Source of the DNA: Mytilus edulis
Taxonomy: Eukaryota
Length of the DNA: 64,000 nt
Assembly: GCF_963676685.1 (NCBI RefSeq)
Contig: NC_092350.1
Span: 10,416,001 to 10,480,000, forward strand
Reading direction: 5' to 3'
The notes beneath the pieces were generated by a model. It had not been told where the DNA came from. It ran no database searches and saw only the letters and a program-made list of their open reading frames with translations. This document shows positions 29,737 to 64,000 of the stretch, piece after piece. Position 1 is the stretch's first letter; the number at the start of each line of letters is the position of its first letter. Made by a program: the position numbers and the translations under genes.

Positions 29737-31103
29737 ATGTATATACAACTCGTCTAAACATCAACCCAACAATGTTAGATCTGTAAATTTGCTTTCGCAA
29801 ATTTTTGGTTCTTCCCTCGCCGGGATTCGAACCCATGCTACTGTGATATCGTGACACCAAATCGCCTGCACTGCAGCCGTCCCGCTAGACCACACGACCA
29901 CCTGGGCTCTCAAAAAAAGAGCTTTCGGTGGGCATGTGTTACCTTTCCACGTCAGTTTTAATCTAGCGGCGTACTACAGTACATGATATATAAGGCATGA
30001 AGATGTTATTGTTACAGATCAGCTAAATTATCTATAGTAAAGGATCCTACAAATTAATGTAAGATACAGTCACAGAAAATAATTATATTCATAAGTACGT
30101 CTGAGTCAGTGACAACCCTACAACAGATGTATCCATCGGATCGCCATCAATGATGGTGATACATGGCTGTGTACATAATGTATATACAACTCGTCTAAAC
30201 ATCAACCCAACAATGTTAGATCTGTAAATTTGCTTTCGCAAATTTTTGGTTCTTCCCTCGCCGGGATTCGAACCCATGCTACTGTGATATCGTGACACCA
30301 AATCGCCTGCACTGCAGCCGTCCCGCTAGACCACACGACCACCTGGGCTCTCAAAAAAAGAGCTTTCGGTGGGCATGTGTTACCTTTCCACGTCAGTTTT
30401 AATCTAGCGGCGTACTACAGTACATGATATATAAGGCATGAAGATGTTATTGTTACAGATCAGCTAAATTATCTATAGTAAAGGATCCTACAAATTAATG
30501 TAAGATACAGTCACAGAAAATAATTATATTCATAAGTACGTCTGAGTCAGTGACAACCCTACAACAGATGTATCCATCGGATCGCCATCAATGATGGTGA
30601 TACATGGCTGTGTACATAATGTATATACAACTCGTCTAAACATCAACCCAACAATGTTAGATCTGTAAATTTGCTTTCGCAAATTTTTGGTTCTTCCCTC
30701 GCCGGGATTCGAACCCATGCTACTGTGATATCGTGACACCAAATCGCCTGCACTGCAGCCGTCCCGCTAGACCACACGACCACCTGGGCTCTCAAAAAAA
30801 GAGCTTTCGGTGGGCATGTGTTACCTTTCCACGTCAGTTTTAATCTAGCGGCGTACTACAGTACATGATATATAAGGCATGAAGATGTTATTGTTACAGA
30901 TCAGCTAAATTATCTATAGTAAAGGATCCTACAAATTAATGTAAGATACAGTCACAGAAAATAATTATATTCATAAGTACGTCTGAGTCAGTGACAACCC
31001 TACAACAGATGTATCCATCGGATCGCCATCAATGATGGTGATACATGGCTGTGTACATAATGTATATACAACTCGTCTAAACATCAACCCAACAATGTTA
31101 GAT
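29737..31103 (-). repeat. 441-bp tandem repeat (3 apparently identical copies plus ~44 bp) with a tRNA-derived Pol III head
   Basis: The same register recurs at 29741, 30182, 30623 and 31064. In copy 1: A box TGGTCGTGTGG (29900-29890), B box GGTTCGAATCC (29833-29823), T7 run just upstream. Flanked by TA-rich tracts. Confidence 0.9.
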
Positions 31104-34100
31104 ATGTATATATAGACGTATTACACATATCCTGATATACTCGTACGATTCGTTGTTTCGGGAGACCGAACAATGTTTGCTAATTGTGATTACTAATTAG
31201 ATTTTGCAAGGTAGACAAATTGGGTACTGATTATTTTGTGCATGATTTACTAGCGCCTTTTCTTCTTGCTTAATTGCATTCATTGGTAATAAGATTTTAA
31301 AATGTTATTATTATTATAAGAGACACTACGCGTTTTACCTTAATTAAACCTGTGTAAAATACGTTCCGATGTTTCTATTTAGAATTATACCTGTTTTAAC
31401 ATAAAAGAAAACTTTAACTTACTTAATTTTCAGAAATATGAACAATTGAACAAATATTTAATAAATCCAAGTTTTAAAGAAAATGTGAAATACTAAGAAT
31501 TGGCATTCATAAACCAATTAAATGACGTTTTCCTATCTTACAAAACACATTTACATGACTATCTACAAACTCTGGATGTTCGTATTAAGTGCGAGGTTTG
31601 GCTAGTCATAAAACCGGGTCCCCCCCCCCCCCCCATTTATTTCTTAAAATGTCCTATACCAAATCAGTTATGTGGCAGTTTTTATCAAATAGTTCGTTTC
31701 CATGTATGTTGCATTTGCGTTTGTTTTTAATGCACTTTAGTGTTTCTGTTGTTCTGTTGTTTTCCTCTTACAGTTGATGTGTTTCCCTCGGTTTAATTTG
31801 TTACCCGACTTTATTTTCTCTTAATCGATTTACGACTTTTGAACAGGGTATACTACTGTTGCCTTTATTTAATATATCATCATGTATTAGTTTGTTAGTT
31901 AACTAGTTATTAGTTTATTAGTTATTTGTTTTTCACTTTATGAATAGTAAGTAGTAAATATAAATTAATAAATCACAAAAAATATAAGCTATGATTCGAT
32001 TGATTACTACATATTTTATTTTCCCATATTCATTTTATCATCCAAATACAATTAGACATAAAATGTGTAAACCAAAGTAAATTTTATTTTCAAAGTGGAA
32101 TTGTGTCAGGTGTTCTTACGGCAAAAACCTACTGTAAGTTCTTGATTAATCTTAGATATGATATATTAAGTCCAATTGTACCATATCAATCGCCAAAAAT
32201 AGTGTTGGATATTAATTTGAGTCTTTACTGATATATTACTTTTAATTTCTCTTTCCAACTGGTTGTGTACTGGTTTTAGAAGAGAACTCTTTTATAGGTA
32301 ATCTATGACTTTTGGGGGAATTTATTCATCCAAAACATAATGTTATTTGTTAAGATAACACTATTGTCTACCTTTTTTTTTTTACAGGGAATGTTTTTAT
32401 GCCAGTTACACAGAATAACTCATTTCCGTTTTTCTTGTTTTGCTTTCCCAATCTTGTCTCCTTGCATTTCTATAATCATTTCATTATTTGCGTGCCCAAC
32501 CGTTTTTATTTGATTGTGTAATCATTTCCTTTCCTTTTTTTTTCTTTTTAACTTTGCCAACATTTTCTTTTTGCCTCTCCAACTTTTTCTCCCTGCTGGC
32601 CCATTTCTTGATTCTTTCACACCTTTTTCTTCAAAATAAAATAAAAGTTGTTTGTAGTTGTTTTACATTCCTCTTGTCCTGGATTCCAATTGCTTTTGAC
32701 AAAATATATCATCACGCTTTTGTTATTAACTTTTTTATTTTAAAACCTTTGTTCATTTTCTCTAATGAACTTAATCATTAATTCTTCTTACTTAAGATAG
32801 TGGACTTGTTATCCAGTTTTATATTAAAAAAAAATCTATGATAACTTGCATCAATATCTTATTGAAGGGAAATAGCCTAATGGTTCGGCTTAAAATTCGT
32901 ACTTGCTCATGCAGTATTCCTTTGTAGATATTTTTCCGTTCCCATATTTTTGTTTGTTTGAGTGATTTATTTTTTTTATTTGTAAATTGCATATCGATAT
33001 ATGTGTTCTAATTTGTAGTTTAGTTCTTTTTATGTACATGTGTACCATGTGTTTTGTGTATCTTATAAAACATTGAATTAAATTAAATTGATTCAAATAC
33101 TCTTTTACATTAAATGCACCAAATATCATAATTGTTTTCTTGTGTAAGCTTCAAGTGGTGCACTGTTACCTTCATTGTAACAAAGTCCAATTATCAGTTT
33201 GCAATCAGATGTTTTGATAAAGAAAGATCCGCTTCTCGTGCTTGTCATACCACACTATTAAGAAGTTTACCGGGAAATACATTTTCTCCGAGTTCACTTA
33301 AAAAACGTCATAATTATACGTCTTATACTAATGGCCTGAAATCAAATCTCTAATGTTACTGTAATCAATGCGCATTTGTATTTTCTTGATAGACCTTTTC
33401 AGTTTAAAGACCAAGTCTGGAGATTATTATCAAAGGAATAAAATATTTCTGAAATTAACCTCTTTAAAACAATACTAAAATCATTCAAATGCCGATATCG
33501 TTATTATTTTTACGTTGTTGTGCCATAAATAAACATTGGGAAGTTTATCATAATCTATTTATAGCTACAATGCAACTTTACACATTGCTAGTCAATATAG
33601 CAGATTATAACAGATTCAGTGTATTGGGCCTGATTGTCAACTTCAACTAACAAAATTATACAGAATGTTACTATTTTCATTTGTGATAGTGTGTATTGTC
33701 TATCTTACACTCGCAGCGACTGACAGATCATCAAAAGGTGTGTATGTGTATTGTATATATATATGTTGACCCACTTTATAACCGTAACTTGTTATTTTCA
33801 ATCTTTCAACTTGTTATACATCTTTCAAATGAGGCAAATTTTTTTTGGTTATTTACTAATGAAAATTTGTCTGTACTTAAATATTTAGGGAGCTATATTA
33901 TTATACATGTCTAGATGATCTAGATGTTAGACGAAATGTTAATTGATGTATGTAATAACAATTATTGATAATTGTAATGATTTTATGGTTCTGATCCTGC
34001 CTGAAATTAAATGTATGTGATTTTTATAGAATGAAGATAATAACATTTGTCTGAACTTTTCTTAATGTTTCATTTTATTATATAAAAATGTTTTTTCTGT

Positions 34101-49044: not shown

Positions 49045-49428
<384 letters not shown>

Positions 49429-49475
49429 TTAATACGTTGTTTGACTTGAACAAGTATAAACAATGATTATCCCAA

Positions 49476-50101
49476 TATATATGTGGTGGTGTTTAACGAC
49501 CTTGACTGGCCTTTCAGCCCTCGCACGGTCGGCTCGGTGCCCGAAGGCGTTTGGTGAGCTTTAAATATTCTGGAGCCATGGGTCAGGAACAAGTAGTGGA
49601 GGTCGCAATATGGAGGCCGCCATCTTGGTTTTGGTGAGTTGTTTTTGGTTTTTGACTATTTTGTTGTTTATTCTTCACTAACGGCTGCTTTCAGGGCCAG
49701 TTTGGTCAGCTTGGCAGCCCGCTAGCCTCGATGATGGAGTACTGGTAGATGATCTCGGACGTAGTTCGAAAGATGACAGGAAGCATTATCAGGACCAAAG
49801 CCGTGAGGCAGTGAAATGAAGGTCGTATCACCCAACAGCCTAGGATACAGCCCTCGGACGTTAATCGGCATAACACTCCCCATAATACAATGGTTTTGGA
49901 GTGCATGTTAACGCGGGTACGCCAACTACTACGTCTATCTGTACGGCATGGATCGGTTTCTGTCATCTTAAGTAGTAAGTCGTTGATATCTAACTGTAAA
50001 CCCTCATCGAAGATAGCGGGTAAAGGAGAGCTGGCCCAGCACGTCCGTTCAGCTGTAATGACTGAGACGTGACTGGATTGTGTTTTGAATGGTAATGGAT
50101 G
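49476..50101 (-). mobile_element. Non-autonomous ~620-bp retroelement, copy U1 (subfamily A)
   Basis: Flanked by GATTATCCCAA (49465-49475, 50102-50112); 3' stem-loop plus TTAAAC tail. Confidence 0.85.
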
Positions 50102-50112
50102 GATTATCCCAA

Positions 50113-50165
50113 TATGTGGTGGTGTTTAACGACCTTGACTGGCCTTTCAGCCCTCGCACGGTCGG
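50113..50165 (-). mobile_element. ~55-bp mini-element S1 (3' stem-loop only)
   Basis: Matches the U1 3' end; flanked by ATTATCCCAA. Confidence 0.8.
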
Positions 50166-50176
50166 TATTATCCCAA

Positions 50177-50780
50177 TATGTGGTGGTGTTTAACGACCTT
50201 GACTGGCTATACAGCCCTCGCACGGTCGGCTCGGTGCCCGAAGACGATTGGTGAGCGTTTGAATAATTTCTGCCGTGGGTCAGGAACAAGAAGTAAGGAC
50301 GCCGAATGGAGGCCGCCATCTTGGTTTTGGTGAGTTGATTTTGGTTTGTTTACTATTTTGGATTTTACTTCTTAACAACGGCTGCTTTCAGGGCCAGTTT
50401 GGTCAGCTTGGCAGCCCGCTAGCCTCGATGATGGAGTACAGGTAGATGATCTCGGACGTAGTTCGAAAGATGACAGGAAGCATTATCAAGACCAAAGCCG
50501 TGAGGCAATGAAATGAAGGTCATATCACCCAACAGCCTAGGATACAGCCCTCGGACGTTAATCGGCATAACACTCCCCATAATACAATGGTTTTGGAGTG
50601 CATGTTAACGCGGGTACGCCAACTACTACGTCTATCTGTACGGCATGGATTGGTTTCTGTCATCTTAAGTAGTAAGTCGTTGATATCTAACTGTAAACCC
50701 TCATCGAAGATATCGGGTAAAGGAGAGCTGGCCCAGCACGTCCGTTCAGCTGTAATGACTGAGACGTGACTGAAAAAATT
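50177..50780 (-). mobile_element. Non-autonomous retroelement copy U2 (subfamily B-like)
   Basis: Flanked by GTATTATCCCAA (50165-50176, 50781-50792). Confidence 0.85.
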
Positions 50781-50792
50781 GTATTATCCCAA

Positions 50793-50848
50793 CAACAAAT
50801 GGAAGTTTTTAACGACCTTGACTGGCTATACAGCCCTTGCACGGTCGG
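50793..50848 (-). mobile_element. ~55-bp mini-element S2
   Basis: Tail matches U4; same 5' breakpoint as S1. Confidence 0.8.
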
Positions 50849-52812
50849 TATTATCCCAACTACTACTAAATAGAGTTTAATGGCGGCTACCCTTGCGGGT
50901 ATTGCGCCAGATTACCTTATATAAAAACATTTCAAGTAAATGTTTTAGAATTATCATTATTTAGGTATAAGCCTATATTATATATTCATATTATAGAAAT
51001 TTGTGAGTTTTTTTGTTTTTTTTCCCCTTAAATTTAATCTTATTTAAATCTGAACTATAGTGTTTATTTTAATTATCTTGATTATCTTTTGGTTAATTTA
51101 AAGTACGAAAAAGAAATATATGTGAACTTATTATTCCATCATTTGTAACTTAGCTTTCTTTGTTTATGAATATTAAATACATTGGTAAATAGGTGTGTTT
51201 GTTGTTTATACATGAAAAATGTAAGTATCTTATACTCTTTGATAGACATATCTGACTTTTACAAATATGCAAATCCTAGAAGGGGTCCGACATATTCCCG
51301 TACATGGTATATACATTAATACAATTATACCGCGGCTCGTACGTCCTTGGTAAACTGTGATTCTCTGTATATTGAATTTGACTAAAGATAGCACCCTCAC
51401 TTATAAAAGATTCTTGAACTTACGTTGTAGAATAAAAAAAATATATAATATATATATTACTGTGTATGTATAATTAGAATCTGTAATGTATTGTTATAAC
51501 ATATTTGTGTGTAATAAATTGCAAGTGTTGATATTGTGCAGTTATGTTCAGTATAGATACAAGAGAGTGCTATCTTGGTAGTACCTGATCTAGTGTACTA
51601 CTTCAAAAAATAAAAACTTTCGTAGAAGTTTTAGTGTATATTGTCAAATTCAACGGGGTTATGTTTCTTTTATTTAGAAATCATAAACTGATAAATGATA
51701 CCCTCCAGCTCTGTTACAACTTTTAAAAAGGCCAATATTTAGAAATGAAAAAACTAAAAAGAAAAGGTAAATAATATATTTCTACCAAATTATTTGTTTT
51801 TGGTGTCATCCGTTTAGACTGGAGTTGTTTCCCTTGCACTGTAAAGAAATAAATTGTAAATACCTGCAGCCGTTAAGCTACCACGTGGTAACCATGTGCT
51901 ACAGGCAGACAGGGCGAGAGGGCTGTAAACAAACAATTTCCAGTCTAAACGGATGAATTAGCAGCCGTGACTAAAAATGATAGACAATAATACCAATACA
52001 AGGTTAGTATTTACACGGTGCATTGTTTTTGGTCGTTGTAAAATATGCTGGTTGGTTCTAAAATCATCATATCACAAGGACCTGGGTTCTGGCAAGCCAG
52101 TGCCCTTAAAGAAAAATATCCCACAATAAGATAACTCATCTCGTCCGTCGACCCCATGTATAACCCTATCAATATTTTAGCTGCGGTGTCAATAGTTTAT
52201 CCATTGACAGCAGCTGAATCACATTCCTCATAGTGTTAGTTAGGTACTTATATATATACAATGTACATGCAGTTAATTCTTGTTGTGAGGTTTGTGTCCC
52301 CAATTTGATTTGGGATGGACCGACGAGAGAGTGCTTGTGATTGATGATTTCTGGGAGATATGTCAGACTCCTGTGGCTTGATATTTTACATATGATCTCA
52401 TGTATTTATCAGCAAGATGAGATTTATAATATTAAAAATCAACTGCTAATTATTTTAATCTAATTTATTTTCACTTTCTAACTTAGATTTTCTCTTATCT
52501 AGAGTTAATTTAATCGGTTGTTACAAATGTAATTAGTATTTTGAATATTTGAGATGCCTTGTCATACTTGTTAAAATCCATGGGTTGTTGTCCAGTGACT
52601 AATATTTCAAAGTTTTATTTTAGAAATAAGTAATTTTACTAGGCCTATAGTTTATGTCATTTTTCTTTTCCTATACTAATAATATCTGTAGGTTTTCTAA
52701 CCCCTACCAAAAATATCTTATTAAAATAATTATAAGCATGTTTTTACAAAATTTACACTAGAAACTAGAAATATATATTGAGGTTTTTTGTATTTTCTGA
52801 ATAATTTTACTT

Positions 52813-54561
52813 TTATCGCATACCCGTGTTTATTAAATAATCCCATATTGGGATAAGGGTCTGAGAATATCCTGAAAATAAATTTTTATACGAGAGATCT
52901 TTTACACCGGTTGATTCAAACTTTTCCATCATTTTATGTCTTTGTGGTATGTACTTATTACAGTTAAACAGGTAGTGTTGCATGTCGTCCACTACTAAAC
53001 ATGTGTCACACAGTTCACTATTACATTTACCCATTGTGTATTTGAATTTATTAGTGAATATATAACTTGATCTAAGTTTAAATAGAGTTCTTTCTCTTTC
53101 TCTTGTACTCTTTGGTATGGTAATACAAAAGTTAACATCTTTTTGAATAGCGTGTAGTTGTTTACTTTTAGTGTTGTTTTCCCAGTATTGTTGCCACATT
53201 TTTTTTAATAAATTTTTACATAAACATTTGATATCTTCTTTGTAAAGTGGTATACTAGTTATACATGTCTCTATTGATAGAGCCTTTTTAGCTGCTGTGT
53301 CTGCCATTTCATTACCACTTAAACCCACATGACTGGGTATCCATTCTAAAATTATATTCAAACCTAATTTGGACAGTTTACTGTATATATATTGGATGTC
53401 ATAAATTATTTGTGTTTTAACTTTAAATATACTTCCTGTAATAGCTTTTAGTGCTGACAGTGAATCTACAAATATTACAGTATTTTCTGGTTGAAATTCT
53501 TCTAACCAATATAAAGATAAAAGTATGGCTGTCAATTCACACATAAATATTGAAACATGATTTTGTAATTTAAAACCTTTTTTTACTTTAAGTTCTGGAA
53601 CGACAAAAGCACATGCATTTGTGTTGTTTTCTGGATTCTTAGATCCATCTGTATATATTTTTAAAAAATTACTATACTTGTTATCAATGAGGATATTTCC
53701 TTCACTTTTAATTAGGTGAGGACTATCCTTTTTAGTAATAATATTTGTAAGTTCCGTTTTGACCTGTGGTTTTAGAACATGCCATGGTGGGGTAGGGAAC
53801 TCTTTACATTTGTATACAGTATTAATATCTACATTATATTTATTCATAGTATCATGTGCAGTAACACAATATGGTTTTTGATTTTCTTTAATTTTTTCCT
53901 TATTAAATTCATATATAGCATTTTCTTGTAAACTTTTTATAGTTGGGTTTGTGTCATTTAGACTAAATATATTCAAAAAAGACTTAGTAATAAGACTTTT
54001 TCTTCTCAACCCATATGGGGGGTCACCAATTTCAGTCTGTAATCCACTTATACTGGCAGTTTTATGAGCACCTGCACATATCCTTAATGCTTGGGCTTGA
54101 ATACTATCTAGTTTTTTCTTGACAGAGTAGGAGGCTGAGTTATAAACCTCACAGCCATAATCTATCTTTGACCTTATCATTGATATATATATTGTTCTCA
54201 GGGTAGAACAATTTGCACCCCATTTAGTACCAGTTAATAATTTCATGCAGTTCAACACCCTTGAACATCTACTTTCTATATATTGTACATGTTTTAACCA
54301 TGTTAGTTTTGAATCGAAAATCATACCTAGAAACTTGACTTCTTTAACAAATGACAATATTGTTTCTCCAAGTTTAAGTTTAATACAAGGAGAACTACTC
54401 TTACTAAATATCATAGCTACCGTTTTTGTTTGTGATATTAGGAAACCCCATTTATCACACCAAGTATTAATTGTGTCTATATCCTCTTGCATTCTTTTTT
54501 GTAGATATTTAGAACTTTTTCCAGATAACCATATGGCACTGTCATCAGCAAATTGTGACAT
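52813..54561 (-). CDS. LINE ORF2 C-terminal part: RT (FADD), RNase H, CCHC
   Basis: FADD, YTDGS, CELTAI, VDSLSAL, WIPSHVGLSGNEMAD, CDTC..H..C. Confidence 0.92.
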   Translation of the reverse strand: MSQFADDSAIWLSGKSSKYLQKRMQEDIDTINTWCDKWGFLISQTKTVAMIFSKSSSPCIKLKLGETILSFVKEVKFLGMIFDSKLTWLKHVQYIESRCSRVLNCMKLLTGTKWGANCSTLRTIYISMIRSKIDYGCEVYNSASYSVKKKLDSIQAQALRICAGAHKTASISGLQTEIGDPPYGLRRKSLITKSFLNIFSLNDTNPTIKSLQENAIYEFNKEKIKENQKPYCVTAHDTMNKYNVDINTVYKCKEFPTPPWHVLKPQVKTELTNIITKKDSPHLIKSEGNILIDNKYSNFLKIYTDGSKNPENNTNACAFVVPELKVKKGFKLQNHVSIFMCELTAILLSLYWLEEFQPENTVIFVDSLSALKAITGSIFKVKTQIIYDIQYIYSKLSKLGLNIILEWIPSHVGLSGNEMADTAAKKALSIETCITSIPLYKEDIKCLCKNLLKKMWQQYWENNTKSKQLHAIQKDVNFCITIPKSTRERERTLFKLRSSYIFTNKFKYTMGKCNSELCDTCLVVDDMQHYLFNCNKYIPQRHKMMEKFESTGVKDLSYKNLFSGYSQTLIPIWDYLINTGMR

Positions 54562-54572
54562 AGCACAGTACT

Positions 54573-56630
54573 TTAAATTATTGGATATATATAATCATTC
54601 ACCATGATGTTAAATAGTGTAGGACTTATACAACTACCCTGTGGTGTACCATTCTGAATTATAAATATTTCAGAGTAAGTATTATTAACTTTAACTTGTA
54701 TAGTTCTGTCACTAAGAAAATCCTTTACCCATCCCAACATATTACCCCTTATACCTATTGAAGCCATTTTTATTAATAACCCATTTTTCCATAGCATATC
54801 AAATGCCTTTTGGAAATCTATAAATACACCAACTGTGAAATGTTTTTTGAGAAATGCTTTATGAATATCATTATCAATTCTAATTATTTGTTCCATAGTA
54901 TTTCTATTTTTCCTAAATCCACTTTGATTTGGTGTGTAGAAATTATTTTTTTCTAGATACCAACGTAGTCTATTATTAACCATTTTCTCCATAATTTTTA
55001 CAAAATTAGAAGTAAGGGCTATTGGTCTATATGACTGTGGGTCTGTGGGGTTTTTTCCAGGTTTAAGTACTGGTGATATAATGGAATGTTTCCATTCACT
55101 TGGAAGTTTTTGTAAAAACCAAACTCTATTGATAAAAAGTAATAACACAGACAGTGATTTGTCTGTAAATTGTTTGAACATAGAATACGTAATTTTATCT
55201 TTTCCAGGGGAGGTATCAGATGTATCACTGATAGCATCTTTTAATTCTTGCATAGTATATGGTTCATTATAACTATCAGAGTTATCCTTATAATAGTGTA
55301 ATAATTTACTGTACTCCTTTTGATCAATATCTTGTTTCTGATTTTTAAATTTTTCTGAGTAATTATGGTCACTACTGACTTGAGCATAATTTGTAGCAAG
55401 TATATCTGCTTTGTCTTGAGTAAATTCATATTTGGTATTATTATATAACAGGGTTGGTAAATTTAATTTTTTAAATGTTTTACCCAACATTGATTTTACT
55501 TTTTTCCATACATCTGATAATTTAGTATCATTATTGAGAGAGTTACAGTAGCTCTCCCAATACATAGCTTGTGCAGCTTTGATAGTTTTTCTGCACGTTC
55601 TTTCTTTTTCTCTATATATAGTGAAATCAATACCAAGACCTGAATGTTGGGCACGGTTTTTACAGGTGTTCCTTTCTTTAACACATTTAGTGCATTCAGG
55701 TGTCCACCATGGTACCTGTGGTTTTTTAGGTTTATTATTTTTTAATTTGACTGGGATGCACTCCCCAGCTATTTTGAGTATTTTGTTTGTTAGTCTTGAA
55801 CATGTTTCTTCTATATTGTCAGAAATCATGTCAGGACTCAAATGTTCATTACACTTGCTGGAGAATGCCTCCCAGTCTGCTTTCTTATAATTATATACAG
55901 ATTCAGTTTCATCAATTTGCATTTGTTTATGGCTAAAACTAATATTTACAACATGATGGTCACTGCCATAGGAACTAATGAGGTCAACTGACCATGTTAA
56001 TTTACTAGCTAAACTAGAATTACAAAAAGACAAATCAATAGGTGACAGTTCTAATGTACTGGGGTTACATCTTGTACCTGTACCATCATTAAGAAGTACT
56101 ATATCTTTATACTCAAGGAAAGAGAACAGCTCTCTTCCCTTAGTATCTATATTTTTACCGCCCCACATAGTGTGGTGGGCATTAAAGTCTCCACATAGTA
56201 TAAATTTTCCCTCTATTTGATCAAATATATTGTTATAATGGGGTAGTTTTGTATTTGATGCTGTGTCATAAAGATTGACCAGTGTAATATTATTATTATC
56301 AAAACTAAATTCAATACATGATATTTCTAAATCACTGTTAATATTCTTTTTCAGATATGGAAGATTTTCTCTGACATATATAGCTGTACCTCCATGTGAT
56401 TTGGTATTACGTACAGAAAAATCAGCTATTTTATAACCTATTACATGTGGATGATCTTGTTCGTTTTTACACCATGTTTCCTGGAAGCAAATAATATCAG
56501 GCTTCATTTGTGACATAGCTATATACGCCGCAGCATTGTTGTTAATGCCGCGACAGTTCCAATGAACAACACTGAACATTATGTTATATAATAATAAACA
56601 TGATAAATAAATAGTATAATTGATAGCCAT
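54573..56630 (-). CDS. LINE ORF2 N-terminal part: APE endonuclease and RT, frameshifted at ~54590
   Basis: WNCRG, FQETW, GDFNAH, SDH, YRPIALT, QSGFR, DFQKAFD, GTPQG. Confidence 0.92.
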   Translation of the reverse strand: MAINYTIYLSCLLLYNIMFSVVHWNCRGINNNAAAYIAMSQMKPDIICFQETWCKNEQDHPHVIGYKIADFSVRNTKSHGGTAIYVRENLPYLKKNINSDLEISCIEFSFDNNNITLVNLYDTASNTKLPHYNNIFDQIEGKFILCGDFNAHHTMWGGKNIDTKGRELFSFLEYKDIVLLNDGTGTRCNPSTLELSPIDLSFCNSSLASKLTWSVDLISSYGSDHHVVNISFSHKQMQIDETESVYNYKKADWEAFSSKCNEHLSPDMISDNIEETCSRLTNKILKIAGECIPVKLKNNKPKKPQVPWWTPECTKCVKERNTCKNRAQHSGLGIDFTIYREKERTCRKTIKAAQAMYWESYCNSLNNDTKLSDVWKKVKSMLGKTFKKLNLPTLLYNNTKYEFTQDKADILATNYAQVSSDHNYSEKFKNQKQDIDQKEYSKLLHYYKDNSDSYNEPYTMQELKDAISDTSDTSPGKDKITYSMFKQFTDKSLSVLLLFINRVWFLQKLPSEWKHSIISPVLKPGKNPTDPQSYRPIALTSNFVKIMEKMVNNRLRWYLEKNNFYTPNQSGFRKNRNTMEQIIRIDNDIHKAFLKKHFTVGVFIDFQKAFDMLWKNGLLIKMASIGIRGNMLGWVKDFLSDRTIQVKVNNTYSEIFIIQNGTPQGSCISPTLFNIMVNDYIYPII

Positions 56631-56675
56631 TTTTAATTGTATATTGTTAATACTTTATATTGGGCGATAAATGAA

Positions 56676-57914
56676 TTATATCATTTCAGTTGTAACTCTA
56701 CTAGCCATTTCCAAACCTAATGAGAGATCAAAATTTGACCCAAACATCTGTTTTACAACTATTCCTACAAAACCCATAATTGACTTTAAAGTAAAGTCTA
56801 TGGGTTTAGTAGGAGGGCTCATAGTCTGGTGCATGACAACACTAATTACAGTTACCAAGTCTTGTATGGTACATTTATCTTTTTTGGGTGGTACTGAGCT
56901 CTGATCTTTTGGGGTTTTGCTAGTTGATTTAGAGCTTTCTTTATGATGTTCATTGATTTTAAGCTGGTTTGTTGCTTGTTGTAGTGAAATATTTTTAGAT
57001 TTCACCAGCTTAAGGGCCATTTTTTGTTGGGTCCTTTGTGGACATTCTTTGTCATTAGACATATGTTTACCTTTACAGTTTACACATTTTAAATCTGTTG
57101 AGGTACATTGCTCGTTCTCATGTTCCTCTCCACATTTAATACATCTTTTTTTATTTCTACATTGGTTTGCCATATGCCCAAACCCCTGACATTTATAGCA
57201 TTGAATAGGTTTAGGTACAAATAATTTGGTATTATATGTTTTGTACCCAATATTGATTGTTGCTGGTAGCTGGGGTGTCTGAAAGAATAACTTTATGGAT
57301 CTAGATGGTTTTCTTTCACCGATTTGTTTGTCAAAGTAGGACATCCTTTGAATTTTACTAACTTTCTGGGCTTTAAGCACCGACACGATATCTTCGTCTT
57401 CAACGTTAATGTCTAGAGGCACGTTATAAATAACTCCTATTGATGAAGTTACAGATTTGGGCACACTTGTCCTAATCTGTAATTCACCAATGAGTTTGAC
57501 GCGTTTTAGCTGTTTCCACTGCGATTTGTCAATGCACTCTACTAGTATTTTCCCACTGTTAAGTGGTTTAATTCTTTTTGGGGTACCAACAGTCTCAAGG
57601 AGAATCTTTTGGATTTTTATCTGATTTTGGGTGCTAAGTTTAGTATTGGGATCAACACTCTGTAGGACTAGTAAATACTCATTACCTTTTACTGAGGGTG
57701 TATGGGGGAGAGGGGAAGGTGTATTAAGGAGGGTATTATCATTTAGGGGAGATGTACTTGCCATTCTTTTTCGTCTTTTCCTCTGTGTGGACCAGCCATG
57801 TTTTTCATATTCAGAGGATTCCATGTCTGTGGTATCAGTTTCATTGAGGGACTTATAAAATTCTTCCTCATCGAACTGACCAGAAATTGTTTTGTCCATA
57901 ATGTCGGACAACAA
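56676..57914 (-). CDS. LINE ORF1 gag-like protein with three zinc knuckles (first ATG at 57899)
   Basis: CYKCQGFGHMANQC, CIKCGEEHENEQC, CVNCKGKHMSNDKEC. Confidence 0.92.
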   Translation of the reverse strand: MLSDIMDKTISGQFDEEEFYKSLNETDTTDMESSEYEKHGWSTQRKRRKRMASTSPLNDNTLLNTPSPLPHTPSVKGNEYLLVLQSVDPNTKLSTQNQIKIQKILLETVGTPKRIKPLNSGKILVECIDKSQWKQLKRVKLIGELQIRTSVPKSVTSSIGVIYNVPLDINVEDEDIVSVLKAQKVSKIQRMSYFDKQIGERKPSRSIKLFFQTPQLPATINIGYKTYNTKLFVPKPIQCYKCQGFGHMANQCRNKKRCIKCGEEHENEQCTSTDLKCVNCKGKHMSNDKECPQRTQQKMALKLVKSKNISLQQATNQLKINEHHKESSKSTSKTPKDQSSVPPKKDKCTIQDLVTVISVVMHQTMSPPTKPIDFTLKSIMGFVGIVVKQMFGSNFDLSLGLEMASRVTTEMI

Positions 57915-58156
57915 AGAATATTGGTGAACACTTTTCAGTAGACAAGAAAAGTTGAGTATCTAACTATAATAATACTATAATAATACTGAATAAATTATTC
58001 AGATAGCAGACAATATCAATTATTTAATATTCTCAAAAAAATATCTGAAATATAAGACTATAAACACAAAATATAATGATATATTCTAATTCAGTGCAGT
58101 GCTACAAAAACACGACCGTGATGATCCGGGACTCACAACCCGAGGTATTATCCCAA

Positions 58157-59684
58157 ATATATGTGGTGGTGTTTAACGACCTTGACTGGCCTTTCAGCCC
58201 TCGCACGGTCGGCTCGGTGCCCGAAGGCGTTTGGTGAGCTTTAAATATTCTGGAGCCATGGGTCAGGAACAAGTAGTGGAGGTCGCAATATGGAGGCCGC
58301 CATCTTGGTTTTGGTGAGTTGTTTTTGGTTTTTGACTATTTTGTTGTTTATTCTTCACTAACGGCTGCTTTCAGGGCCAGTTTGGTCAGCTTGGCAGCCC
58401 GCTAGCCTCGATGATGGAGTACTGGTAGATGATCTCGGACGTAGTTCGAAAGATGACAGGAAGCATTATCAGGACCAAAGCCGTGAGGCAGTGAAATGAA
58501 GGTCGTATCACCCAACAGCCTAGGATACAGCCCTCGGACGTTAATCGGCATAACACTCCCCATAATACAATGGTTTTGGAGTGCATGTTAACGCGGGTAC
58601 GCCAACCGCTACGTCTATATGTACGGCATGGATCGGTTTCTGTCATCTTAAGTAGGTGTAAGACATAATAATGTCCTTATAAAATAATGTCCATTGCCAT
58701 GGAATGATGTCCCTCAAAAGGACAGATTTTTACTGCTAACTATATGAAATAGTGTCCACTCACAGGACAAATTTTCATAGTAGTTGCTGTTAAATTGTAA
58801 GGGAAGTAATACAAAGGTCATTACAAAGTTTTATTATACTTGAATTTTAATTAAAATATGAAGGATTGATGAGAAATTGATCAATGTACAAATGTAAACA
58901 AATAAATAATGGATGGAAGTGAATATAGAGAAATTTAAGTTCCTAGAAATTCCCAGCAAATGGAAATGACAATGAAAGAATAACAATAAGAAGGAAGTGT
59001 AAAATCAAATATGAAGAACTTTATAATATGTATTATGTCAGATAACTTGCGGAAGGCAATAGAAAATAAATAATGTCCATTGCCATAAAATATTGTCTCC
59101 ATGAAATATGGTCCATCTGCAGAACAAATTTTCGTAGTGAATGTTATTCAATTGTGTACTCAAAGGAAAATAAAATGGAACAGCATCTAACATGTATATA
59201 ATTATATTAAAAAATATAGATATGAAGATAAGGATGGTAGGAGTGCCAATGAGACAATTTTTATGTCAAAGTAACAATTAATTCAAGTTCGTAATTAAAG
59301 TTAAAATGCGTCCAGTAATAAAAAGGCAATGGATATCATTTAATACTTTAATCATATAAAAAAATGACCTGGCGGACACAATGTCCTGTGAAATAAAGGT
59401 CCATGTGGACATATTATGGTAGCGAAAAATGTCTATGTTCATGGACACTTTTTCATACCTGAGGACATGTTTTCATAGGAAATTGTGTCCAGGACACATT
59501 TAAATAAGTAAATATTGTCAAAATGTGTCCGGTGGACATTTTTTCATGGAGGACATTATTAAATCCTACATAGTAAGTCGTTGATATCTAACTGTAAACC
59601 CTCATCGAGGATAGCGGGTAAAGGAGAGCTGGCCCAGCACGTCCGTTCAGCTGTAATGACTGAGACGTGACTGATGAAATGAAT
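58157..59684 (-). mobile_element. Non-autonomous retroelement copy U3 (subfamily A), interrupted by a MITE
   Basis: Near-identical to U1; flanked by TATTATCCCAA (58146-58156, 59685-59695). Confidence 0.85.
58657..59570. mobile_element. 914-bp non-autonomous DNA transposon with TGT..ACA termini
   Basis: 21-bp imperfect TIR tgtaagacataataatgtcct / aggacattattaaatcctaca; many subterminal tgtcc/ggaca motifs; tagg/tagt flanks. Confidence 0.8.
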
Positions 59685-59695
59685 TATTATCCCAA

Positions 59696-60322
59696 CAACA
59701 AATGGAAGTGTTTAACGACCTTGACTGGCTATACAGCCCTCGCACGGTCGGCTCGGTGCCCGAAGGCGATTGATGAGCATTTAAATATTTTCTGCCGTGG
59801 GTCAGGAACAGGTAGTAAGGACGCCGAATGGAGGCCGCCATCTTGGTTTTGGTGAGTTGATTTTGGTTTTTTACTATTTTGATGTTATTCTTCACAACGG
59901 CTGCTTTCAGGGCCAATTTGGTCAGCTTGGCAGCCCGCTAACCTCGATGATGGAGTACTGGTAGATGAATCGTGGACGTAGTTTTAAAGATGACAGGAAG
60001 CGTTATCAGGACCAAAGCCGTGAGGCAGTAAAATGAAGGTCGTATCACCCAACAGCCTAGGATACAGCCCTCGGACGTTAATCGGCATAACACTCCCCAT
60101 GATACAATGGTTTTGGAGTGCATGTTAACGCGGGAACGCCAACACCTACGTCTATCTGTACGGCATGGATTGGTTTCTGTCATCTTAAGAAGTAAGTCGT
60201 TGATCATCTAACAATAAACCCTCATCGAAGATAGCGGGTAAAGGAGAGCTGGCCCAGCACGTCCGTTCAGCTGTAATGACTGAGACGTGACTGAATGGAT
60301 TGAATCCAAAATGGATTGAATG
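59696..60322 (-). mobile_element. Non-autonomous retroelement copy U4 (subfamily B), promoter-proximal
   Basis: Flanked by TATTATCCCAA (59685-59695, 60323-60333). Confidence 0.85.
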
Positions 60323-60555
60323 TATTATCCCAAGAGGTGGTAGTTTACTATTTATACCCGCAAAACGGATTGAAAGATGTTTCAGTTCTAAACCAATCAA
60401 ATCATCGCTTCTTCCAGGTAGTTAGGTTGAATGTTAGAAGGTGCTCTCTCCGAAGTTCGCGTTAAGTAAAAACTTTCAATCCGTTTTGCCGAGTATAAAT
60501 AGAAATTTTTATTAACGGCCATCATTCACTGATTACATTTCAGAGAGTATACATC
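60323..60555. promoter_or_regulatory. Bidirectional H2A/H2B-type histone promoter
   Basis: Divergent TATAAATA boxes (60356-60349 minus; 60494-60501 plus), each preceded by CTTTCAATCCGTTTTGC. CCAAT at 60393. ATCATTC cap motif at 60521-60527, about 30 nt from the plus-strand TATA. Confidence 0.8.
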
Positions 60556-60930
60556 TGTCTGTATTTAACTAATCACCACAAATAGTTAAACATGTCAGGA
60601 ATCTAATCACCACATTTAGTTAAACATGTCAGGCATGGATTAGATAATAAAATGTCGAATCAGAAAATGTATTGACTAATGTGAAAATCTGTATATATGT
60701 TTGTTCCGTCTGTGTATATGTTCTTCATGTGTGTATTTATAAACTGTTTTGTGTGATCAACGAAATTTGACGTTCACAAAGAAAAAGGCGGGGAAGAGAA
60801 ACAAAGCATTTACTGACTTAAGTATAAGCAACCCACTTGCACAAGCACTACTTTTTTCCTTTCCCCACCTCACCTTTCTATTATCCATATGTGTTTAACT
60901 TTTTGTTCATTATAACAATATAAAACAAAT

Positions 60931-62226
60931 ATGAATGTGATATATTCAAGAGCCGCCTCAGATGGCGAAGAAGGGATAAAAATAGGGAAAATGATCCCAA
61001 GGCCCTGTACCCTGCTAATACAATCTGATTACGAATCACATAAAATCACATCGGCAGAAATGCTACATTACATTAATAGCGAGATAAATCTTGAAATATC
61101 AGCCCTCATATGCTATTTTCAATCAACTGGTATAAACAAGTTCTCGGCCTCTTTTAGAGATGAACATGCAAAAGACATCTTCCAAGATACATTTAGCGAT
61201 AAAATAGAGATTCAAGATATTACATTTAATGTAGAACAAGCAGAACCCCTACAATGGGGGAAAAAAAAAAAAACTATTGACATTACTTTGTTTGGTATAC
61301 CATATGAATTAAAACCAGAGTACATAAGAAACAAAATGCAAAAATATGTAGATATAAGGGAAATAAAATATAACAACTACAAAGATTTCCCCGATATATC
61401 CAGTGGGGTCGTTACTGTTGTAGCAAACAGTATTAAAGAGGATATACCCAAAAAGATATATATAAAAGGGCAACAGATATCTACTCGATATGAAGGCCAG
61501 CCACACGGCAAAAAGTGTTTTAATTGCCAAGCATATGGACATATCTCAAAAGATTGTCCAGAGCCACAAGGTAGAATCTGGGGTTCAGCAAGAACCCACC
61601 CTACTAGAACAAGAACAAATAGTAGTGAGTCCCTATCCACACAAGACTCACAAGAATCCCAAGATTCACAAGAAACCACAATTGTAAACTCAGGGGAAAT
61701 AGAGGTAGAAATCTACCATGAAAAGGAAACATTAGAAATAACCCAAACTAACACTTCCGATTCCACCCCCTTAGAAGAAACTCTAAACGAATCAAAGAGC
61801 AGCAATGAGTCAATTGATCATGAAATCATAATCACACAAGCTCTTGAAGTCAAATTTGATAAACCTCAGTCAGAGACTGAAAAAATAAATGAAAAACAAA
61901 AAGGTAAAAAAAAGCCAAACCAAACTGATTACAATGATCTGATGGACGATTTAACAGAGATATTGGGCTCAGTTTCTGAGTCAGAGCCCGAAAATAATGA
62001 AACAGAAGAACAGCAAATAGAAAATAAAGAGTCGAATGCCAAATCTGGAGCCTCAGTGGCTCAAGGAAAAGGTACGACCCAAACCAAAAAAGAAAAAGTC
62101 CTAACAGACAAAGAAAAAAAGAGAGCAAGAACAGAAAGACAAAGAATCGAAAAAAGGAAAAATCTAAGTGATAGCGAAAATGAAGTAGAAAAAAGGAAGC
62201 CAGTGGCAAAGAAACAGATAAAATAA
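60931..62226 (+). CDS. L1/Tx1-type LINE ORF1 with a single CCHC knuckle
   Basis: TLFGIPYEL..IPKKIYIKG..RYEGQP..CFNCQAYGHISKDC and a charged C-terminus. Confidence 0.85.
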   Translation: MNVIYSRAASDGEEGIKIGKMIPRPCTLLIQSDYESHKITSAEMLHYINSEINLEISALICYFQSTGINKFSASFRDEHAKDIFQDTFSDKIEIQDITFNVEQAEPLQWGKKKKTIDITLFGIPYELKPEYIRNKMQKYVDIREIKYNNYKDFPDISSGVVTVVANSIKEDIPKKIYIKGQQISTRYEGQPHGKKCFNCQAYGHISKDCPEPQGRIWGSARTHPTRTRTNSSESLSTQDSQESQDSQETTIVNSGEIEVEIYHEKETLEITQTNTSDSTPLEETLNESKSSNESIDHEIIITQALEVKFDKPQSETEKINEKQKGKKKPNQTDYNDLMDDLTEILGSVSESEPENNETEEQQIENKESNAKSGASVAQGKGTTQTKKEKVLTDKEKKRARTERQRIEKRKNLSDSENEVEKRKPVAKKQIK

Positions 62227-62359
62227 AACAATGGTCATAAGATAAAACTAGATTTAAATTAAAATTAAAGAAAGACAAAACCTATTATATTGTATATTTT
62301 ATTATTTATTTATGATTAGTATCTTCACATTACTTCTATACTTTCTTTTACTAACTCAC

Positions 62360-64000
62360 ATGAGCACACTTCATATTATTTCACAAAATATAAGGAAAAA
62401 TATAAATACAAAGTATAAAGATGTTATCAACAGTTACCAAGATGCAAATATCATATGTCTACAAGAAACAGGGGTTTTAAAAAGATCAACCCAAGTTGAC
62501 ATTGAAGCCACTACAAATTTTAAAATTTACAGTTCCGATGGAGAAAATAGGGCAAGGGGTGTATGTATATTAATAGCAAAAGATGCAAAAGAAATACTTC
62601 AAAAACAGGTTCCAGCGACGCTAAAAGGAAATTTCATCCATATTGAATTTAAATTAGAAAGTAAAAAATATCAACTGCTAAATATATATAGCCCAGAGAA
62701 TACAACAAGACCACAAACAGAATTTTACGATCAATTAAATAAATATGTTGAACTGATAAATGTGAAAACAGACGTAGTAATTTTTGGAGGGGACTTTAAC
62801 CTGATAGCATCAGAAATAGATTCAAAAACAGGAATAATTAAAACAGGTAGAAGGACTTTAGATTTATTTAACAGTATAATTCACAAACTAAATATAAAGG
62901 ATACTTACAGATATAGAAATAAAAATAAAAGAGTATACTCATGGGCAAATTTCGATAACAGTTCAGCAACAAGAATAGACAGAATTTATCTATCTAAACA
63001 TATCTGCAATAAAATAAAAGACACCATAAATACACCATTTACAAGATCAGACCATAAAGGATATAAATTAAGAATTTTAATGGGCCATATAAAATGGGGA
63101 ACAGGATTCTGGAAGCTAAACGAATCATTATTAAAACAAAAGAAGTATACAGAACTGGTAAGAAATTTTTGGAATTCATGGGAAAAGGAGAAATATAAAA
63201 TGAATATCTTAGATTGGTGGGAAAAAGGGAAAAAATCAATAAAGGATATAACCATAAACTATAGCAAGGTAATGGCAACCAAAGAAAAATACAAATATAA
63301 GGGCTTGATACAAGAGCTAGAAGAAGAGGAAAATAAGGATACAAATGATATATCTAATGACAGAATAAATAAAATAAAAAAAGAAATAGAAACATTAGAC
63401 GATAATAGGAAAAAAGGAGTTATAATAAGATCAAGGGAGGAATATTATAATGGAGATCTAGAAAATATAGAAATTTTTGAATTAGCTGAAGAAAAAAGGG
63501 GCATAAAAAAAGAAATAAGAGAACTTTATGACAAAAATGGGATATTAAGGGAAAACAAAGAAGAAATAATAAACGTGGTTAGAGACTTTTATGAAGGACT
63601 ATATAGTAGCCAAAACATAGAAAACGGAAAAATTAAAGACTATTTGGAAGGGGTCAAAATTAATAAATTAGAGGAAGCAGATTGGATACATTTGAACCCA
63701 ATCATGACAAACGAAGAATGTTTTAAAAATACAAAAGACTTCCAAAATAATAAAACACCAGGAATAGATGGTCTAGGGAAATCATTCTATGTCGAATTTT
63801 GGGATATTATAGGCGAGGATTTGACAGAAGTAATAAATAATATTTACTTAACAGGGGAAATGACGGAATCTATGAAAACCGGCATAATTACTCTGAGTTA
63901 TAAAAATAAAGGAGATCCTAAAGAATTGAAGCAATGGAGACCCATAAGTTTATTGTGTTTTGACTATAAAATTATAACAAAGACCCTAACAAAGAAAATG
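62360..64000 (+). CDS. L1/Tx1-type LINE ORF2 (APE endonuclease and start of RT), open to the window edge and absent from the ORF track
   Basis: Hand translation of motifs: MSTLHIISQNIR, CLQET, GGDFN, RIDRIY, SDH, GFWKLN, KTPGIDG, FWD, WRPISLLCFDYKII; start and end are in the same frame. Confidence 0.9.
   Translation, partial: MSTLHIISQNIRKNINTKYKDVINSYQDANIICLQETGVLKRSTQVDIEATTNFKIYSSDGENRARGVCILIAKDAKEILQKQVPATLKGNFIHIEFKLESKKYQLLNIYSPENTTRPQTEFYDQLNKYVELINVKTDVVIFGGDFNLIASEIDSKTGIIKTGRRTLDLFNSIIHKLNIKDTYRYRNKNKRVYSWANFDNSSATRIDRIYLSKHICNKIKDTINTPFTRSDHKGYKLRILMGHIKWGTGFWKLNESLLKQKKYTELVRNFWNSWEKEKYKMNILDWWEKGKKSIKDITINYSKVMATKEKYKYKGLIQELEEEENKDTNDISNDRINKIKKEIETLDDNRKKGVIIRSREEYYNGDLENIEIFELAEEKRGIKKEIRELYDKNGILRENKEEIINVVRDFYEGLYSSQNIENGKIKDYLEGVKINKLEEADWIHLNPIMTNEECFKNTKDFQNNKTPGIDGLGKSFYVEFWDIIGEDLTEVINNIYLTGEMTESMKTGIITLSYKNKGDPKELKQWRPISLLCFDYKIITKTLTKKM

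Follow-up and report, generated by a model that had tools for sequence, protein, structure and literature searches.

Stacked insertions at an H2A promoter

The window (the whole 64,000-nucleotide stretch of Mytilus edulis DNA that was analysed) contains H3 and H2A genes with histone stem-loops, the only families that Rfam reported there, and 5.74-kb histone repeats adjoin. A divergent H2A/H2B promoter at 60325-60560, with TATA boxes on the minus strand near 60357 and on the plus strand near 60496, is identical to its copies in the 5.74-kb repeats. The H2A reading frame and its 5' untranslated region (49045-49475, minus strand, including the last copy of a target-site duplication, TSD) are separated from their own promoter by about 11 kb of stacked insertions. 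Eight copies of the 10-mer TTGGGATAAT lie between the TATA box and the ATG of H2A and bound seven insertions, in order U4, U3, an I/Nimb-type LINE, a tail fragment, U2, another tail fragment, and U1, all on the minus strand. The first T of the H2A TATA box lies 33 bases before the end of the upstream copy of the 10-mer (60324-60333, minus strand), a spacing that places U4 in the start region of H2A.

U1 to U4 are copies of one non-autonomous retroposon, here called U, each preceded by a different stretch of extra letters, the leader. U4 (59696-60292), full length at about 600 nt, begins with AGTCACGTC, ends in GTCGTTAAACACTTCCATTTGTTG and has a leader of 31 nt (60323-60293, ACATTCAATCCATTTTGGATTCAATCCATTC). 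U3 (58157-59672; leader of 13 nt at 59685-59673, AATTCATTTCATC) is interrupted at about 58656-59562 by what is likely a non-autonomous DNA transposon, an insert of about 900 bp that has inverted ends and in which ATGTCC words recur. U2 (50177-50771) and U1 (49476-50074) are also full length, with leaders of 11 nt (50782-50772, ACAATTTTTTC) and 28 nt (50102-50075, CCATCCATTACCATTCAAAACACAATCC; its first C is possibly a TSD letter). The two tail fragments (50793-50849 and 50113-50166) are 5'-truncated and carry no leader. The LINE (50860-58146), with a CCHC ORF1 (57899-56676) and an APE-RT-RNase H ORF2 (56630-52813) split over two frames, sits in the H2A target site shared with the U copies. AGTCACGTCTCAG occurs four times in the window, always on the minus strand, against a chance mean of 0.02. 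Because the empty H2A site is intact in 29 of the 30 promoter copies examined (of 169 candidates), TTGGGATAAT can be read as the TSD and the leaders as extra letters. An initial annotation of this DNA had described four different leaders; all four were recovered, that of U4 exactly as given and those of U1, U3 and U2 with one or two first letters that it had omitted.

On the other side of the promoter, 60561-64000 (plus strand, running on into locus L114) is a Tx1/L1-type LINE with a poly(A) end, located in the H2B 5' untranslated region immediately before the ATG; the divergent promoter is therefore broken on both sides. Elsewhere in the window, 29737-31111 is a tandem repeat with a period of about 441 bp and identity above 99%.

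The U family and its partner LINE

In the 1.37 Gb of genome searched, U is a dispersed family whose 20-nt head has 137 exact matches and whose 18-nt tail has 526. Among the loci collected we found 155 heads with no more than two mismatches and kept the 92 with a tail in range, an exact TSD of 9-17 nt and a parsable leader, dropping 63. The most frequent TSD length is 11 bp (27 of 73). With its TSDs, short-repeat tail, 5' truncations and many dispersed copies, U is SINE-like; neither ARAGORN nor Rfam matched a tRNA-like Pol III head, although decayed heads can escape both. An HDV-like 5' ribozyme trimming the leaders was rejected, as its first stem and GG fit by eye but its central hairpin and loop do not. 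Many tail-only copies, including the two in the window (50113-50166, 50793-50849) and others elsewhere, share one start, A-CCGACCG, about 65 nt from the end, which is either a truncation hot spot or a separate mini-SINE. Diverged relatives of U (69-79% identity in the 3' part) with leaders of like kind are present at two loci (L144, L139).

A second family, the partner LINE (L225), has its last 58 bases in common with U at 96.6% identity. L225 and L232 are full-length copies of 7.3 kb; ORF2 of L225 encodes APE endonuclease, reverse transcriptase (RT) and RNase H domains, in an order that fits the I group, ORF1 matches no Pfam family, and we take the element to be of Nimb type. Its head does not match that of U. 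The common tail suggests that the partner LINE is likely the source of the enzyme that copies U; the window's own I/Nimb-type LINE was ruled out for this role, its tail being different. A leader with ATTC or CAATCC is present on each of the two full-length partner copies that have a TSD. Among truncated partner copies, 27 have a TSD; judged by eye, their 0-8 extra letters include none of the leader words, and 24 short tail-only U copies have no leader-type patch. Several U and partner copies are stacked in one target site, as in the window, at L009, L111, L082/L083, L210 and L221, and these stacks together with that in the window show that a used target site gets re-targeted.

U resembles the LP (LINE-promoter) SINEs of molluscs, described as short retroposons with TSDs and a short-repeat tail (PMC4758252), in being a short mollusc retroposon with the same features and without a detected tRNA head. 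LP-SINEs have a head of about 70 bp homologous to the 5' ends of Nimb-17_LMi, I-3_DR and RTE-9_CPB (PMC4758252); the head of U shows no match to that of its own partner LINE. The account of LP-SINEs in section 10 of that source mentions neither variable 5' leaders nor promoter targeting (PMC4758252).

Insertion behind TATA boxes

At scattered sites, copies of U and of the partner LINE are often found in sense orientation with a TATA box about 33 bases ahead of them. Among 80 independent U sites (the 92 minus 12 dropped as tandem, same-locus or look-alike targets), 25 have a TATA[AT]A whose first base is 29-36 bases ahead of the TSD end, against a control mean of 1.97 and maximum of 5 (p 6e-21), and 1 of the 80 has it at the mirror place on the opposite strand; 22 of the 25 boxes lie at -34..-32. 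The strict motif is absent from 55 of the 80. The interval was chosen after seeing the data, and a held-out set was then examined, in which 5 of 12 sites (those usable among 30 new heads) have the motif versus 0.17 in the control. For the partner LINE, the counts are 8 of 23 sites (28 TSD copies minus 5 tandem or duplicate) versus 0.7.

Pol II transcription starts about 30 bases after a TATA box. The TSD would thus extend from about -10 to +2, the stretch of DNA that is melted in the open complex, and the observed spacing, with the TSD end 30-34 bases after the first T of TATA, falls at the expected start; tethering to TBP or to the open start complex may bring the insertion machinery there. 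It is possible instead that ORF2p reads TATAAA-like DNA directly, about 22 bases from the first nick, without contact to TBP or Pol II. The fixed spacing is compatible with either route and many targets lie in other repeats or unannotated DNA, but the position of the TATA box varies slightly less relative to the end of the TSD (sd 1.15) than relative to the TSD start (sd 1.59), which is blurred by the tail, and the sole target identified and confirmed as a real promoter is H2A. Independent insertions of U or the partner LINE are also present at the same position in paralogous repeat copies (L029, L085, L243, L311; L032/L042/L093, L066/L073, L072/L099), the motif ahead of them being a TATA box in some cases and CAAGATGGCGG in others.

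Position-specific retrotransposition has been established for Pol III genes, where Ty3, DGLT-A and TRE5 insert at a fixed distance from the transcription start, Ty3 doing so via TBP/Brf1 (PMC6101501). U and the partner LINE resemble Ty3 and TRE5 in their fixed distance to a promoter element, 22 of the 25 TATA boxes at U sites being confined to three positions. However, Ty3, DGLT-A and TRE5 target tRNA genes, whereas an I/Nimb-type LINE and a SINE here hit Pol II-type TATA sites in sense, as judged from spacing. Our literature search found no account of TATA-start targeting by an I-group LINE, and Repbase, subscription papers and supplements may contain one. If a LINE and a SINE do land at Pol II TATA starts, they would form a natural promoter trap: genes would be uncoupled from their promoters, as H2A is here by about 11 kb, and in a mollusc genome that lacks annotation the TSDs would point out start sites active in the germline.

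Composition, transcription and origin of the leaders

Over the 92 TSD copies, leaders are 0-49 nt long (median 13.5) and at least 4 nt in 87, and their length is the same with or without a TATA box (p 0.82). They are built from AATC, ATTC, ATC and AC words: AATC, ATTC or CATC is present in 79 of the 92 leaders versus 19 of 92 flank stretches of the same length. Their letters are A 522, T 469, C 466 and G 54 (3.6% G), and their 162 ANTC words comprise AATC 85, ATTC 75, ACTC 2 and AGTC 0. In the first 75 leaders the commonest of 308 words are ATTC (45), AATCC (40), ATC (35), AC (28) and AATC (16), and 32 of the 75 begin with CA. Adjacent identical words are only marginally enriched (22 versus 15.6, p 0.06). 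G runs stand ahead of an A-starting word in 23 of 37 cases, against 30% expected (p 4e-5), which is where a copied cap would be expected; the word list was drawn up with the data already in view. In 12 of 100 heads (the first 100 of 153 listed, judged by eye), ATTC, AATC, ATC or AATCC takes the place of the AGTC that belongs to U itself.

Three stranded RNA-seq runs, from one study of a related or the same species, cover U along its length, at about 100-130 in the expected sense orientation versus 1-8 in the other (X21, X22). Reads that reach the U head mostly run on into loose ends of leader type (in X21, 57 listed reads where the depth is 87), extending past AGTC by medians of 20-29 nt for the main read groups (X21, X22). 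Single copies account for some of the leader reads (25 reads, agreement 0.9). No accumulation of RNA starts, at AGTC or elsewhere, was found in these reads. Because the reads run through the head into leaders, U copies are transcribed from upstream, leader included. The premise of the initial annotation, transcription from a host promoter, is supported by this sense RNA and by the position of U4 in the H2A start region.

The leaders had also been read as a nested record of successive transpositions. Among the 84 of 92 copies with full bodies, 52 pairs no more than three changes apart share 1.33 terminal leader letters, versus 1.29 when permuted (p 0.46); the last leader word is the same in 2 of the 52, and two copies with identical bodies have only the final C in common. 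Near-identical bodies thus share the proximal leader only at chance level. An order-3 Markov null accounts for all suffix sharing, whereas an order-2 null does not, and in a tree of 68 bodies the leaders do not cluster (Mantel rho -0.08, p 0.16). Pairs up to 12 changes apart have the same last word in 13.6% versus 6.3% (p 0.013, one of 18 tests), and related copies have leader 3-4-mers in common (p 0.03-0.05, 45 tests), which are weak signs of leader inheritance. These results only weaken a cumulative model, because the nesting test loses power if many jumps (10 or more) fit between body mutations and leaders often reset. Since the leader is carried in RNA, its missing inheritance is a real puzzle.

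Our main reading, to which we give a probability of roughly 0.58, is that U and the partner LINE target start sites and that the leaders of full-length copies are likely rewritten by the LINE RT during insertion. A stutter of the RT at the capped 5' end is favoured because the patch is limited to full-length ends and independent of flank and TATA, and because G precedes A-starting words and AGTC is replaced in some heads. Target-primed reverse transcription would insert the copy and generate the observed TSD of about 11 bp, the enzyme being assigned from the common tail. The host promoter would then transcribe the copy from about the leader start, consistent with the read-through in RNA-seq. 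At the capped 5' end the RT would slip back, its terminal T re-pairing with the A after a C, and recopy 2-5-letter A...C words about four times, usually ending after C and sometimes reading the cap as G, before second-strand priming. The CA-rich patch may provide an initiator whatever the register, and may also serve as a 5' buffer that the element can afford to lose.

The template for this step would be either the parent's leader, which accounts for the missing AGTC but demands heavy slippage, or the element's first word, which accounts for the reset but not for an AGTC count of 0 in 162. Because the parent's leader is present in steady-state RNA, plain copying should transmit it, and the model therefore needs heavy slippage or a substrate that starts at AGTC. 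We put forward only tentatively the full scheme, in which the LINE/SINE pair docks on Pol II start complexes, the start region of about 11 bp becomes the TSD, and the RT adds telomerase-like repeats at the capped RNA end, giving each copy a fresh initiator array.

Cumulative host tags, whether from histone promoters or from any TATA promoter, are together an unlikely source of the leaders. In the broader version, which is quite unlikely, transcription from any host TATA promoter starts 1-5 bases inside the TSD end and adds these letters plus a C, with frequent resets. The expected start does lie inside the TSD end in 23 of 29 TATA sites, host letters plus one C give about the right C content, and the weak leader sharing at moderate distance and the low power of the nesting test at 10 or more jumps are compatible with it. 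However, the model predicts a wide range of tags (the 29 sites give 22 kinds of outcome), with G in the host part of 6 of 23, whereas G is rare in leaders and AATC or ATTC makes up half of their words. Initiator-like words at empty sites are ACT or AGT in 11 of 43, unlike the ANTC words of leaders; this deficit (p 6e-7), together with the identical bodies that share only a last C, argues against host letters as the source that the initial annotation had supposed.

Another reading, also rather improbable, has the RT jump in trans to other capped RNAs, such as histone mRNAs or the RNAs of other LINEs, and copy their first 2-5 letters. The G ahead of A-starting words, the match of leader words to histone starts and the head of the window LINE family (ATTCGGG in most of 13 heads seen) would fit such jumps, but longer pieces of these RNAs are not enriched, and the C at the end of each piece is left unexplained.

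Less probable still is a source in histone promoters, where each cycle would add a histone cap-site word and a junction C to a nested record. The proposed cap-site words AATC, ATTC and CATT are indeed present about 30 bases behind the histone TATA boxes (GATAATCATT in H2A, CCATCATTCAC in H2B), at starts that are predicted, and AATC, ATC and ATTC are all present in histone 5' regions. The H2A TSD, ending in AATC, plus a C gives AATCC, the commonest double-C word (U1, L062), leaders are included in RNA, and none of 66 target sites matches leaders as well as the H2B 5' region does. However, word shuffling reproduces the H2B match (16 tests, p 0.045-0.64, only one at 0.045), contiguous histone 5' pieces are not enriched in leaders beyond the word-shuffle null, and the same words occur at non-histone sites, with similar ones in the partner LINE. 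Histone promoters hold only 5 of the 155 heads, at two sites and all H2A (four in the window, one on C3); none of the 155 lies at the other promoters compared, those of H2B, H3 and H4, and collapsed arrays in the assembly may lower these counts. The closest relatives show no nesting. The original observation is confirmed and its interpretation partly supported.

A host-repair origin, in which polymerase-theta-type templated insertion or snap-back builds the patches from nearby DNA, is largely refuted. In its favour, the U4 leader holds a hairpin (TGGATT-C-AATCCA) and is similar to CTTTCAATCCGTTTT, which lies upstream of the TATA box at this site. However, a comparison over 69 sites shows leaders to be no more similar to the adjacent flank than to flanks from other sites (p 0.29), the vocabulary is identical everywhere, and truncated junctions lack the words. 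Templating by the element's own tail type was likewise rejected (13 words tested, best p 0.038).

The 5' tags of Drosophila HeT-A are copied from the 3' end of the neighbour, are inherited and stack in order. U and HeT-A are alike in transcription from a promoter upstream of the 5' end, as the sense reads entering the leaders indicate for U, and in their extra, expendable 5' letters. Unlike HeT-A tags, the leaders of the dispersed U copies are neither inherited as a nested series nor copied from the flank or an upstream start site. HeT-A transcripts with upstream starts begin at -31, -62 and -93 in the upstream element (PMC1636488). The 5' junctions of R1 and R2 have extra non-templated letters of unknown origin, ascribed to RT running off the template (PMC2718515), which may have any sequence and are seen at truncated as well as full-length ends (PMC2718515). 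U leaders differ in being near-universal, up to 49 nt long, composed of four words and limited to full-length copies. Such an addition points to RT activity at the cap; our literature search found no description of such leaders or of such an activity, and one may be contained in Repbase, subscription papers or supplements. If the RT does rewrite the leader, the new initiator array would let the element capture a host promoter and would uniquely barcode every insertion event.

In the family of the window LINE, one AATC or ATC word sometimes precedes the ATTCGGG head, and inspection by eye shows TATA-like words some 32 bases upstream of several copies; this family may be a second one that targets start sites. 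Full-length heads of the partner LINE (L244-L258) are mostly on one contig, C11 (13 of 15 among the matches listed).
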